A stretch of DNA of 64,000 nt from a virus (Duplodnaviria; Heunggongvirae; Uroviricota; Caudoviricetes), in the IMG/VR virus record IMGVR_UViG_2859180793_000001, positions 2,529 to 66,528 of that record. One strand, given 5' to 3'. Numbering within the stretch: position 1 is the first letter of the stretch; the number at the start of each line of letters is the position of its first letter. Below, piece after piece: positions 5,992 through 9,360 of the stretch. The position numbers and the translations under genes were made by a program. The notes beneath the pieces were generated by a model. That model had not been told where the DNA came from, made no database searches, and saw only the letters and a program-made list of their open reading frames with translations.

Positions 5992-8900
5992 ATGAATCTT
6001 GGACACGCGCTCTCGGTGCGTTCCGACTTCTCGGTAGGAGAGTCGCTGCTGCAAGTCGGCCACCTCGTCGACAAGGCGAAGGAGCTGGGCTACAGCTCCG
6101 TTGCGCTCACCGACACCATGAGCCTGCACGCGATGGTGGACTTCACCAACCGTGCGAAGAAGGCGGGCATCAAGCCCATCATCGGCTGCCGCGTGCGCGT
6201 GGTTGACGATCCCACCTACCGCAAGCCGCCCAAGTCCAGCGGCGTCGCTGAAGTGCCGAATCTCGGCTACACCCTGAAGCTCTACGCGCAGGACGAGCGC
6301 GGCATCAAGGGCCTCATCAAGCTGCTCTCGAAAGCCAATTCGCCCGAGTATTTCTACTACGTGTCCCGCGTGGGCCTGGACGATGTGTGCGAGCTGGAGG
6401 GCGTCACCGTCACGACGGGCGACATGTTCAACCTGTTCCACCATCCGCAGGCGCAGGACAAGCTGGAGATGCTGATCAACGCGATGGGCCGCGAGAACGT
6501 CTTCGTGGAGCTGGTGCCGATCAATACGCCGCTGTTCGACACGCTCAACGCGAAGGCTCTCCAGGCAGCCGACGCCTTGACCGCCGCCACGCTCGTCACA
6601 TATCCGACCTGCTACCGCGAAGAGGACGACGCATCGAGCCTGGACGTGCTCGGCGCCGTCACCTCGAACACGAAGATGGACGTGCCGTATCGGCCGATCC
6701 AGTTCGTCAAGGACTTCCACTTCCAGGCGCCGAACCATCTGGTCGACCGGATCAAGGCCGCGCACGGTCGCGTGGTGAAGTTCAACGGCGTCAACCTGCC
6801 GTCTCTGTGGCTCGCTGGCCTGAAGAACGTGGAGGAAGTGGCCAAGAAGAGCGGCTACGAGTTCTCCAAGCAGCCGGTCTGCCTGCCCAAGATGGCGGCC
6901 AACGAATTCATGGAGCTGGGCCGCAAGTGCATCGAGGGCTGGAAGCGTCGGTTCTCGCATCCGGTGCTCGGCTACAAGCCTGACCCGTCGCTGATCCCCG
7001 CCTACAAGGACCGGCTGAACTATGAGCTGGCGGTGCTCAAGAAGATGGGCTTCGCTGGCTACTTCCTGCTGGTCGAGGACTTGGTGAACTGGGCCAAAGA
7101 GAACGGCATCATCGTCGGCCCTGGCCGGGGTTCGGTGGGCGGCTCGCTGGTCGCTTACCTGATCGGCATCACTGACGTGGACCCGATCCGCTTCAACCTC
7201 CTGTTCGAGCGCTTCATCAACCCCGAACGTCTGGACTTGCCTGACGCCGACCTGGACTTCATGTCGACACGCCGGCACGAGGTCATCGAATACCTCACCA
7301 AGCGCTACGGCGCCGACCGGGTGGCAGGCATCTCCAACTACTCGACACTCGCCTCCGCTTCGGCGCTGCGCGACACAGGCCGCGTGTATGGCTTGAGCGG
7401 CCTGGAGCTGATGGCGACCAAGCTCGTGCCCAAAGAGCACGGCCAGTCCTTCACGCTCACGGATGCCGCCAAAGCCGTGCCCGAGCTGGAGAAGTTCCGC
7501 GACGAGAACACGGAAATCTGGAGCCACGCGCTCAAGCTGGAAGGGGCCATGCGCTCGTTTGGCCAGCACGCAGCCGGTGTGATCGTGGCGGGCGAGCCGT
7601 TGATTGAGCGCGCCGTCGTGGAGACGCGCGGCGAGTCGCCGGTGGTGAACTGGGACAAGCGTGTCGTCGAGGACTGGGGCCTGGTCAAGATGGATATTCT
7701 GGGCCTGTCCACCCTCGACGTGCTGGAGATCGCCAAGAGCTACATCAAGGAGCGGCACGGCAAGGAAATCAACTACCTCTCCCTGCCGCTGGAGGAGCCC
7801 GACATTATGGCGGCCTTCGCTCGGGGCGATACGACTGGCGTGTTCCAGTTCGAGTCGGGCGGCATGAAGGGCCTGCTGCGCAACCTGGCGATGGGTGGCG
7901 ACCTGACCTTCGAGGACATTACTGCCGCCACTGCACTTTATCGCCCAGGGCCGATGGACTCGGGCCTGATGGACGACTTCATCCAGATCAAGCAGGGGTG
8001 CAAGCTGCCGTTCTACGAGCACCCCGCGATGGAGCCGGCGCTCAAGGACACCTACGGCGTCATCGTCTACCAGGAACAGGTCATGCAGCTGGCCGTCGAC
8101 CTTGCCGGCTTCACCCGCGCCGAAGCAGATCACCTGCGCAAAGCGATGGGCAAGAAGGACAAGGACAAGATGGCGGAGATGCGCCAGAAGTGGGTCGACG
8201 GCTGTCTCGCGACCAACGGCATGGACGAGACGAAAGCGGGCCCGCTGTTCGACAAGATCGAAGCCTTCGCAGGCTACGGTTTCAACCGCTCCCACGCGGT
8301 CGAGTATTCGATCGTGTCCTACTGGACGATGTGGGTGCGCGTGCGCTATCCGGCCGAATACTTCGCCGCGTGCATGTCGATCGTCAAGGAGGAGAAGTTG
8401 CCAGGGCTGGTCAGCGATGCGCGGGAATATGGGATCGAGATCCTGCCGCCGTCGATCAACCAGTCCACGCACCGGTTCACCATCCCTGACGACAAGCACC
8501 TGCTGGCGCCGTTTTCGAGCGTCAAGGGCATCTCCGAGAACACCGCACGCCGGATCGTGGAGCTGCGCAACGCGCAGGGCGGGGCGTTCAGGGACATGGA
8601 CCACTTCCTCGAAGTGACGGAAGCCAAAGGCTCGAAGGTCAACAGCAAGGTCCGAGACGCGCTGGACAAGGTGGGGGCGCTGGTGGAGATCCAGCCTGGC
8701 GCGAAGCCGGCACGAGCGCTGGAGCGTCGCCGCGATCAGACCGAGCTGATGCCTGGCCTCATCATCGACAGCGTGAAGGCCGACCGGCAGACCGACCTGA
8801 CGGAGAAGTTCCTGCGGGCGAAGGTGATCAGCCTCGTGCAGGAATACAAGAAGTGCGATGCGTGCTCGCTGGCGGGCCAGAACCACCCGACCGTGCGCGC

Positions 8901-9360
8901 CAAGAACACCGTCAAGTTCATGGTCGTGACGGACTGTCCGAGCTGGCAGGAAGAAAAGGCGGACAAGATGCTGGAGGGCGACAGCGCCACCTTCATCAAG
9001 GAAGCGCTGAAGGCGGCCGGCCTGGCGCCGGCAGAGGGCTACTACACCTCGCTGGTCAAGGCGAAGAAGGACGACAAGTTCCTGTCCAACGCGCAGATCA
9101 ACGGCTGCTCTGGTTTCCTCAAGCGGGAAATCGAACTCATCAAGCCGCCGGTGATCGTGGCGCTGGGCTCTGCTGCCATCAAGCACTTCATCCCTGGCAT
9201 CAAGGGCGGCACGGCGGAGCTGACTGGCAAGGCGATCTACGACAAGACGCTGGACGCGACCATCGTCTGTGGCTTCAACCCGCAGCAGTTGGTGTTCGAC
9301 GCGTCCAAACAGCCGGTTCTCGAAGCTGTGTTTGCGAAAGTTGCCGAGTGTTTGTCCTGA
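5992..9360 (+). CDS. dnaE: DNA polymerase III alpha subunit (DnaE-type) with C-terminal UDG family-4-like domain
   Basis: 1122 aa. PHP N-terminus. Palm motif GYFLLVEDLVNWAKENGIIVGPGRGSVGGSLVAYLIGITDVDP. HhH segment. The last about 200 aa (KKCDACSLAG..FMVVTDCPSWQEE..CSGFLKREIELIKPPVIVALGSAAIKHF) align to the family-4 uracil-DNA glycosylase fold. Confidence 0.9.
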   Translation: MNLGHALSVRSDFSVGESLLQVGHLVDKAKELGYSSVALTDTMSLHAMVDFTNRAKKAGIKPIIGCRVRVVDDPTYRKPPKSSGVAEVPNLGYTLKLYAQDERGIKGLIKLLSKANSPEYFYYVSRVGLDDVCELEGVTVTTGDMFNLFHHPQAQDKLEMLINAMGRENVFVELVPINTPLFDTLNAKALQAADALTAATLVTYPTCYREEDDASSLDVLGAVTSNTKMDVPYRPIQFVKDFHFQAPNHLVDRIKAAHGRVVKFNGVNLPSLWLAGLKNVEEVAKKSGYEFSKQPVCLPKMAANEFMELGRKCIEGWKRRFSHPVLGYKPDPSLIPAYKDRLNYELAVLKKMGFAGYFLLVEDLVNWAKENGIIVGPGRGSVGGSLVAYLIGITDVDPIRFNLLFERFINPERLDLPDADLDFMSTRRHEVIEYLTKRYGADRVAGISNYSTLASASALRDTGRVYGLSGLELMATKLVPKEHGQSFTLTDAAKAVPELEKFRDENTEIWSHALKLEGAMRSFGQHAAGVIVAGEPLIERAVVETRGESPVVNWDKRVVEDWGLVKMDILGLSTLDVLEIAKSYIKERHGKEINYLSLPLEEPDIMAAFARGDTTGVFQFESGGMKGLLRNLAMGGDLTFEDITAATALYRPGPMDSGLMDDFIQIKQGCKLPFYEHPAMEPALKDTYGVIVYQEQVMQLAVDLAGFTRAEADHLRKAMGKKDKDKMAEMRQKWVDGCLATNGMDETKAGPLFDKIEAFAGYGFNRSHAVEYSIVSYWTMWVRVRYPAEYFAACMSIVKEEKLPGLVSDAREYGIEILPPSINQSTHRFTIPDDKHLLAPFSSVKGISENTARRIVELRNAQGGAFRDMDHFLEVTEAKGSKVNSKVRDALDKVGALVEIQPGAKPARALERRRDQTELMPGLIIDSVKADRQTDLTEKFLRAKVISLVQEYKKCDACSLAGQNHPTVRAKNTVKFMVVTDCPSWQEEKADKMLEGDSATFIKEALKAAGLAPAEGYYTSLVKAKKDDKFLSNAQINGCSGFLKREIELIKPPVIVALGSAAIKHFIPGIKGGTAELTGKAIYDKTLDATIVCGFNPQQLVFDASKQPVLEAVFAKVAECLS

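Follow-up and report, generated by a model that had tools for sequence, protein, structure and literature searches.

A C-family phage DNA polymerase in which a uracil-DNA glycosylase fold of family 4 with degenerate catalytic motifs takes the place of the OB fold and tau-binding tail

Several phage replicases are known to carry a uracil-DNA glycosylase (UDG) fold. Timinskas et al. 2014 (PMC3919608) described a DnaE variant, present in some Yersinia pestis and Salmonella enterica strains, with the OB fold and C-terminal domain (CTD) replaced by an archaeal-type UDG (PF03167). Among the PolA enzymes, the N4-like UDG-PolA group (cluster 17, Czernecki et al. 2023, PMC10201439) does not conserve the catalytic residues, and vaccinia D4-A20 served as the analogy for a proposal that the UDG-like domain of SPO1/T5 PolA confers intrinsic processivity (PMC3201878). 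Cryo-electron microscopy of SP15-like UDG-PolAs shows the 5' template threading the UDG ~5 nucleotides ahead of the polymerase site, at the position occupied by Mpox E4 (bioRxiv 10.1101/2025.03.26.645540). Here we describe a dnaE-UDG gene (5992..9360, + strand) located in a 64,000-nucleotide stretch of a Caudoviricetes genome (IMG/VR record IMGVR_UViG_2859180793_000001, positions 2,529 to 66,528; hereafter the window). Its product is a DNA polymerase of the C family (DnaE type), 1122 residues long, which ends in a UDG-fold domain whose catalytic motifs are degenerate.

The window has a GC content of about 62% and is transcribed almost entirely from the + strand, with a third-position GC content of 0.88 for the dnaE-UDG open reading frame (ORF). 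The encoded protein passes the NCBIfam DnaE-type model TIGR00594 (738 bits compared to a cut-off of 434), and phrog_405 of the PHROGs collection matches residues 6-1121. The domain order is PHP (6013..6513, residues 8-174; PF02811, E=3.2e-21), palm and fingers (6916..8214, residues 309-741; PF07733, E=8e-80 and PF17657, E=1e-53, divided by Pfam into DNA_pol3_alpha at 309-571 and DNA_pol3_finger at 574-741), a duplex-binding (HhH)2 domain (8431..8694, residues 814-901; PF14579 HHH_6, E=1e-15) and the family-4 UDG-fold domain (8833..9357, residues 948-1122), all on the + strand and with every Pfam domain exceeding its gathering score. Alignment to the E. coli enzyme shows the polymerase Asp triad is intact, with D418, D420 and D568 corresponding to D401, D403 and D555. 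The NCBIfam DnaE models cover residues 7-902, and the match to PRK05673 ends at model position 886 of 1146, scoring 788 compared to an equivalog cut-off of 1002, which does not support membership of DnaE1. Neither an OB fold nor a tau-binding CTD was matched in the polymerase tail by Pfam and NCBIfam profiles. The tail is instead a family-4 UDG fold that replaces the OB fold and tau-binding region.

This assignment is supported by both profile and structure comparisons. PF03167 matches residues 973-1105 with E=5.6e-10 and 39.9 bits (gathering score 24.3), or 43.6 bits when the tail alone is used as query. The NCBIfam family-4 models NF040953 and TIGR00758 align end to end with residues 948-1121 at E~1e-12, with scores below the respective curated cut-offs (47.7 compared to 250, and 47.0 compared to 125.3). 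Searching PDB sequences by phmmer with residues 887-1122 retrieved T. maritima TM0511 (E=4.9e-13), T. thermophilus (Tth) UDGA (6.4e-10) and S. tokodaii UDG (2.9e-8). An AlphaFold2 model of the same residues, built from 36 metagenomic homologues, displays a mean predicted local distance difference test (pLDDT) score of 89.5 and a predicted template modelling (pTM) score of 0.80. When compared to the PDB using Foldseek, the top matches are family-4 UDG crystal structures (best 1l9g, 1vk2, 1ui0 and 4zby), with E~1e-12, a root-mean-square deviation of 2.2 Å over about 187 aligned columns and template modelling (TM) scores of 0.82-0.86, normalised on the target. UdgX, family 5 and TDG/MUG structures rank below family 4, and 9qhs, an SP15-like UDG-PolA, is also a significant match of the tail model (E=2.3e-4). 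The UDG-fold assignment is thus far above chance. UdgX-like covalent chemistry was considered and rejected: TIGR03914 scores 39.3 bits compared to a cut-off of 189.95, UdgX chains in the PDB are matched only at E=0.02-0.1, and the UdgX R-loop KRRIH with His109 is not found in the window domain.

An earlier note on this DNA had proposed that a DnaE-type polymerase carries a C-terminal family-4 UDG-like domain, and Pfam, phmmer and the AlphaFold2/Foldseek comparison agree with this. The profile and structure check it called for revealed the UDG fold rather than an ordinary OB/tau region. The interval it had given for the domain, 8650..9360, does contain it, but the domain proper occupies only ~175 residues (948-1122), the rest corresponding to the end of the HhH region and a ~45-residue linker.

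Active site residues were mapped onto Tth UDGa by combining the phmmer alignments to PDB sequences with MAFFT. Motif A (GE[GA]PG) is degenerate and reads TDCPS (8929..8943, + strand, residues 980-984), with G40-E41-G42-P43-G44 of Tth UDGa corresponding to T980-D981-C982-P983-S984. Motif B ([TF]-x-HP) is similarly degenerate and reads GFNP (9271..9282, + strand, residues 1094-1097), H155-P156 being replaced by N1096-P1097 with loss of the catalytic His. Between these motifs, E47 is kept as E987 while F54 corresponds to L994. N80 corresponds to S1020, the first residue of the segment S1020-LVK-A1024 (9049..9063, + strand), which retains K83 as K1023 and contains A1024 at the position of C84, the third Fe-S ligand. 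Ligands 1 and 2 are located in C955-x2-C958-x6-H965 (8854..8886, + strand), aligned with CTAC of TM0511 and Tth UDGA, and ligand 4 is C1039 within NGCSGF (9106..9108, + strand). Hence, three of the four Cys ligands are present, and the family-4 signatures of motif A, motif B with His155, and Asn80 with Phe54 are all absent from the window domain.

The motif pairings put forward in the earlier note recur here: REIELIKPPVIVALGSAAIKHF pairs with KQIELIAPQIIVPLGAVAAEFF and GEGPG with TDCPS in the phmmer alignments to PDB sequences, and the His motif F-HP-SYLL pairs with F-NP-QQLV (residues 1095-1101). Its Fe-S proposal is borne out for CDAC (955-958) and C1039 as ligands 1, 2 and 4, but not for ligand 3 (VKC), which is Ala1024, nor across the clade, about half of which contains no Cys. 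The replacements of F54 by L994 and N80 by S1020 are further losses that it had not listed.

The uracil pocket of Tth UDGa is made up of E41, G42, E47, F54, N80 and H155, and k2/Km is reduced ~2500-fold by H155S, ~900-fold by E41Q, ~40-fold by N80A and ~17-fold by F54A (Xia et al. 2017, PMC5387724). Five of these six residues are changed in the window domain (E41D, G42C, F54L, N80S and H155N), leaving E47 as the only one kept. Given that single changes cost 17- to 2500-fold, canonical uracil excision by this domain is very unlikely, and we infer from the sequence and the published kinetics that glycosylase activity has been lost. With five of six pocket residues substituted, the non-glycosylase reading offered in the earlier note appears reasonable.

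To place these changes in the context of the wider clade, we made use of an exhaustive phmmer search of 1.84 billion metagenomic cluster representatives, which returned 139 hits at E<=1e-10. The residue census covers the 77 fused or split proteins among the best 150 cluster representatives, of which 43 are full-length fusions and the other 34 are split, with HhH+UDG proteins that are each about 390 residues long. The E41 position is Asp in 68 of the 77, and the His of motif B is lost in 75 (N in 48, S in 16 and T in 10, with H in 2). Asn is found in none at the N80 position, which is occupied by S, A, G or T, while the F54 position varies between G, A, L and M. In contrast to these variable positions, T1019, K1023 and P1097 are nearly invariant. 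The predicted catalytic degeneration is therefore clade-wide, though not universal. The pattern of Fe-S cysteines is bimodal: ligands 1, 2 and 4 occur jointly in 34 of 77 representatives, 33 contain no Cys and 3 contain all four. His965 accompanies the Cys triad in 89% of triad carriers, compared to 21% of Cys-free members, which may point to a remodelled metal site of the Cys3-His type where family-4 enzymes have their four-Cys Fe-S site; common descent might, however, give the same correlation.

A distant metagenomic relative of 1111 residues, P0199 (L013 7298-10633; ENA ERZ807352 NODE_18), is a DnaE-UDG fusion that retains every canonical residue: the four Cys, GEAPG, E47, F54, N80 and HP. 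The contig that encodes it is phage-like and also contains genes for DnaB, primase, HNH and RecA. The protein has the same five-domain architecture, with the UDG domain scoring 95 bits. P0199 and the window protein align colinearly from end to end at 30% identity, including the 'LMPG' linker motif, and P0199 is probably an active counterpart of the degenerate clade. By their residues, intact and degenerate DnaE-UDG forms coexist, as published for PolA-UDG fusions. The fact that P0199 is both intact and colinear favours a single ancestral fusion of an active UDG, with catalysis later lost in a large clade that includes the window protein.

Three further proteins bear on the wider family. P0173 (1840 residues, metagenomic) is a DnaE-UDG that contains an intein (Intein_splicing, Hom_end_hint) and retains four Cys as well as the motif-B His. 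The UDG-like N-terminal ~200 residues of the PolA proteins from Bacillus phage Nachito and Serratia phage Serbin also keep the motif-B His, and their motif A reads D-A-P-[TN] as in the DnaE-fused clade. This likeness hints at a common polymerase-associated UDG lineage.

The DnaE-UDG fusion is widespread. A tblastn search with the tail located it in about 30 phage genomes, on the Pol III alpha of Pseudomonas phages hairong, nickie and ZY21 (43-48% identity) as well as Stenotrophomonas, Rhizobium and Xanthomonas phages, and in SSU5-like phages (31-32% identity). For SSU5 and for plasmids of Y. pestis, Salmonella, E. coli and Klebsiella, the matches span 100% of the query at E~1e-24. The tail is furthermore present in 983 PLSDB plasmid records (Klebsiella 340, Escherichia 217, Acinetobacter 154, Enterobacter 91, Yersinia 63 and Salmonella 49), which among those listed are mostly non-mobilizable and about 100-115 kb in size. 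Tail identity is 57-80% to metagenomic relatives and 53-57% to A. baumannii plasmids. At the nucleotide level, the window gives only short matches of 74-81% identity to the phage collection, in which this very phage is hence absent. The gene order CobT/CobS-like, small ORFs, dnaE, SSB, FEN and RecA is common to the window and its relatives. The GenBank entry for gp048 of Rhizobium phage RHEph10 already carries the note 'uracil-DNA glycosylase-like'. The novelty implied by the earlier note does not hold, as the architecture was published in 2014 (PMC3919608) and the window protein is a further member of a widespread group. What is added here beyond the 2014 description is the residue census of the clade, the intact relative P0199, the Cys3-His pattern and a gene variant split by an HNH gene.

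The split variant was found in a close relative (L008 2892-7179; JGI Ga0590113_0000038), where a free-standing HNH_3 gene cuts dnaE in the fingers, at a point equivalent to window residue ~742. This leaves a 789-residue N-terminal part and a 392-residue HhH+UDG protein. A group I intron was considered as the cause of the split, and no Rfam match was found at E<=0.1; a free-standing HNH insertion is hence more likely. On A. baumannii plasmids, the split C-terminal part is named 'uracil-DNA glycosylase family protein' by PGAP.

Compared to the closest described systems, the window protein has the domain order of the 'DnaEX' type of Timinskas (PHP-Pol3-(HhH)2-UDG, PMC3919608), with PF03167 in place of OB and CTD. 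That study described the architecture only and did not report the degeneration of the motifs. Homology and colinearity extend to the proteins of SSU5-type phages and of Y. pestis/Salmonella plasmids, whose tails are 31-33% identical to that of the window protein, and the enterobacterial DnaE-UDG loci have in common with the window the order CobS-like gene, small ORF, dnaE. The SSU5 branch is without the Fe-S cysteines, whereas the window protein belongs to a different, high-GC branch and keeps three of them. The free-standing family-4 UDGs (TM0511, 1vk2/1l9g; Tth UDGa, 1ui0; S. tokodaii, 4zbx) have the same fold at 21-25% identity, together with the CxxC...C spacing and the equivalents of E47, T79, K83 and P156. 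The window domain differs from these at motif A, F54, N80, C84 and H155, and in being fused to a polymerase.

The N4-like UDG-PolA proteins resemble the window protein in combining a phage replicase with a family-4 UDG fold, in the degenerate catalytic residues, in the proposed processivity or DNA-handling role and in having no known DNA modification. They are A-family enzymes in which the fusion is N-terminal and the UDG packs between exonuclease and polymerase, whereas the window protein is a C-family enzyme in which the fusion is C-terminal, follows the HhH region and replaces the OB fold. The SP15-like UDG-PolA proteins (YerA41, phiLo; Missoury et al. 2025) similarly have a UDG fold fused to a phage replicase. 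Their motifs are intact, as in P0199, and the enzyme is active, excising template dU ahead of the fork in phages that have hypermodified thymidine. The window domain, in contrast, is without His155, Asn80 and Phe54, and no modification genes were found in the phage window. The poxvirus D4/E4 protein is likewise a UDG-fold part of a replicase that binds DNA and aids processivity independently of catalysis, but it is encoded by a separate gene acting in trans, belongs to family 1, is still active and serves a B-family polymerase via A20. The OB and tau-binding domain of E. coli/Taq Pol III alpha is unrelated in fold to the window tail (14.5% identity in a forced alignment), and the latter contains no tau-binding region; contact with the single-stranded template may be a role common to the OB fold and the UDG domain.

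A conserved motif is located in the linker that connects the HhH and UDG domains (R912-RRDQTELMPGL-923; 8725..8760, + strand), with the clade consensus R-x-[RK]-x-Q-x-x-L-[LM]-P-G-[LIV]. In the homologue alignment, R912 and L919 are invariant, and at least 90% of the sequences have Q916. Of the 77 representatives, 43 match the strict form Qxx[LFM][LMVI]PG, with variants visible in others. The linker is the stretch of lowest pLDDT in the AlphaFold2 model and may constitute a clamp- or partner-binding peptide. The linker sequence 'DQxELMPGL' looks similar to QADMF, the clamp motif of E. coli. A clamp-binding role stays a candidate, as MAFFT places the linker opposite 'RAALMNSL' of the E. coli enzyme, which lies upstream of QADMF by about 20 residues, rather than opposite QADMF itself.

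The earlier note had also suggested that the domain senses uracil or a modified base. This is not supported, as the residues that read uracil (N80, F54 and H155) are lost and no modification genes were found in the window or in hairong. Neither hydroxymethylase nor kinase/transferase hypermodification genes were detected among about 50 window proteins using Pfam and PHROGs, or in the hairong annotation, and the same holds for a clamp, a dUTPase and a second UDG. The window does encode ThyX together with a MazG-like pyrophosphatase and a thymidylate-kinase-like protein, clustered at 25707..28199 (+ strand; PF02511, phrog_229 and phrog_2107) and adjoined by class I ribonucleotide reductase genes (21142-24823), and hairong is annotated with thymidylate synthase and DHFR. 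The ThyX/MazG-like/thymidylate-kinase-like set represents ordinary dTTP supply and pool sanitising. A link of the phage to hydroxymethyluracil or another modified base is thus unsupported. The parallel the note drew with SPO1, the polymerase of which has an analogous UDG-like domain, agrees with the literature (PMC3201878, PMC10201439).

We propose that the ancestral OB fold and tau-binding tail of a phage C-family replicase would have been replaced by a family-4 UDG domain, and that the lineage would then have lost uracil recognition and catalysis while keeping the fold and DNA-binding cleft. Tethered behind the HhH region, the domain would bind DNA without excision, holding or guiding it at the fork. 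Ahead of the active site it would most likely engage the single-stranded template, taking over the job of the lost OB fold, and it may in addition raise intrinsic processivity. The OB fold is the single-stranded DNA-binding element of DnaE, and as the UDG domain replaces it, a role in template binding and/or processivity is the most economical reading, to which we assign a probability of about 0.5. Retained function is supported by a tail identity comparable to that of the core in near relatives (52% and 42% respectively between hairong and the window protein). The range of the domain extends from phages of Rhizobium to phage-plasmids of enterobacteria, and it also survives in stand-alone HhH+UDG proteins. 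The most conserved positions (D981-x-P983, T1019/K1023, G1059 and G1094-x-x-P1097) map to the cleft loops through which UDGs make contact with DNA. Precedents agree with this reading: template threading by SP15-like UDG-PolAs, the proposed processivity role of the catalytically degenerate N4-like UDG-PolAs and of the SPO1/T5 domain, and the existence of P0199 as an intact, colinear DnaE-UDG.

Several points weigh against this reading. Since the fold itself depends on the cleft loops too, their conservation is not specific to DNA binding. The net charge of the domain is about neutral across the clade (median -1, range -12 to +12; +4 in the window protein), and it does not obviously resemble a basic clamp. 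DNA binding and template-strand placement are both deduced, placement by analogy only, and a model of the HhH+UDG module (pLDDT 87.8, pTM 0.68) does not fix the relative orientation of the domains. The conserved linker hints at use of a host clamp, which would make intrinsic processivity less necessary. A literature search pairing DnaE or DNA polymerase III with UDG found no functional study of a C-family fusion, only the 2014 architecture paper. Furthermore, conservation of Asp981, Asn1096 and Glu987 in the active site loops could reflect a different chemistry rather than none.

This last point leads to the possibility that the domain continues to act as a glycosylase or a base-flipping reader, but one whose chemistry or specificity has changed, for instance a slow MUG/TDG-like enzyme or a read-ahead sensor of a damaged or non-canonical template base. 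Family 2 MUG/TDG enzymes are active without the motif-B His, and TDG and MUG structures are among the weaker fold matches of the window domain. Position 981 is Asp in most of the clade, Asn as at 1096 occurs most often in motif B, and Glu987 (E47) as well as Pro983/Pro1097 are kept. A relative with intact motifs exists in P0199, and excision of dU ahead of the fork is known from active PolA-UDG fusions. However, the motif-B, F54 and N80 positions all vary (N/S/T, G/A/L/M and S/A/G/T respectively), hence no consistent base-recognition pocket is conserved. The substitutions combine several changes that are each strongly deleterious alone, and no modified-base pathway was found among the scanned window proteins. 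We consider this possibility unlikely. A similarly low probability applies to the domain being mainly a protein-interaction platform that replaces the tau-binding CTD and couples the polymerase to the phage DnaB-like helicase, primase, SSB or DnaQ-like exonuclease, as vaccinia D4 binds A20. The CTD is indeed missing, and no clamp loader or tau was found in the scanned window proteins or the hairong annotation. The overall charge of the domain is near neutral, PolA-UDG has been presented as a recruitment platform for PolX (bioRxiv 10.1101/2025.03.26.645540), and PMC1936997 describes a catalysis-independent role of the poxvirus UDG as polymerase processivity factor via A20. Against this platform role, the most conserved residues fall within the DNA-binding cleft and not on a distinct surface patch. 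Finally, the domain might be an evolutionary relic without a function of its own, kept only since its deletion would destabilise the polymerase. The loss of catalytic residues and the faster divergence of the tail at long range (28% identity to SSU5, compared to 43% for the core) would fit such a relic, but the full length is retained across a very broad clade, near relatives conserve the tail as well as the core, certain loop residues hardly vary, and the domain is kept in the split-gene HhH+UDG proteins. We regard a relic as highly improbable.

A broader and more tentative extension, which we consider possible though doubtful, is that C-family replicases carry a read-ahead module similar to that of A- and B-family enzymes. 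An active UDG, intact in P0199-like phages, would have replaced the OB fold to scan the template ahead of DnaE, and would have become a non-excising guide or sensor with a Cys3-His site in the window clade. If true, UDG-fold template handling would be a convergent feature of replicases from three polymerase families. DnaE-UDG is the replicase of clinically common phage-plasmids, including those of Yersinia and many of Klebsiella, E. coli and Acinetobacter, and its study would show how a C-family polymerase works without an OB fold and tau-binding tail. The coexisting intact and degenerate forms provide a natural comparison with the recently solved PolA-UDG enzymes.

Other replication genes are distributed along the window. 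A separate gene for a DnaQ-like 3'-5' exonuclease, the probable proofreader, is located at 33118..33705 (+ strand; PF00929 RNase_T, E=1.1e-21), which confirms the separate proofreader named in the earlier note, and hairong has a syntenic '3'-5' exonuclease' gene. A gp32-like single-stranded DNA-binding protein is encoded at 10612..11451 (+ strand; PF08804, E=3.8e-18). Just upstream of dnaE, the region 1219-5223 encodes a CobT-like (VWA) and CobS/MoxR-like AAA+ pair and a sigma-70 region-2-like protein. A CobS-like and/or sigma-factor-like gene is present in the same position in hairong, nickie, SSU5 and L008, and a sigma-factor-like gene in the Rhizobium phages. Directly downstream of dnaE (9444-10481) lies the gene for a 345-residue protein, the N-terminal half of which is very acidic, Pro/Ala/Glu-rich and of low complexity, while the C-terminal half matches only PHROGs of unknown function.

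Further along, an Mre11-like metallophosphoesterase and SbcC/Rad50-like ATPase pair (15665-19041) is interrupted by a 138-residue ORF (16681-17097), and a RuvC-like resolvase is encoded at 19929-20507. A UvsW-like SF2 helicase on the minus strand (50711-52282) is followed by two ParB_N-domain proteins (52345-53805), for which a role in partition, like that known from phage-plasmids, and a ParB-like nuclease activity are both possible.

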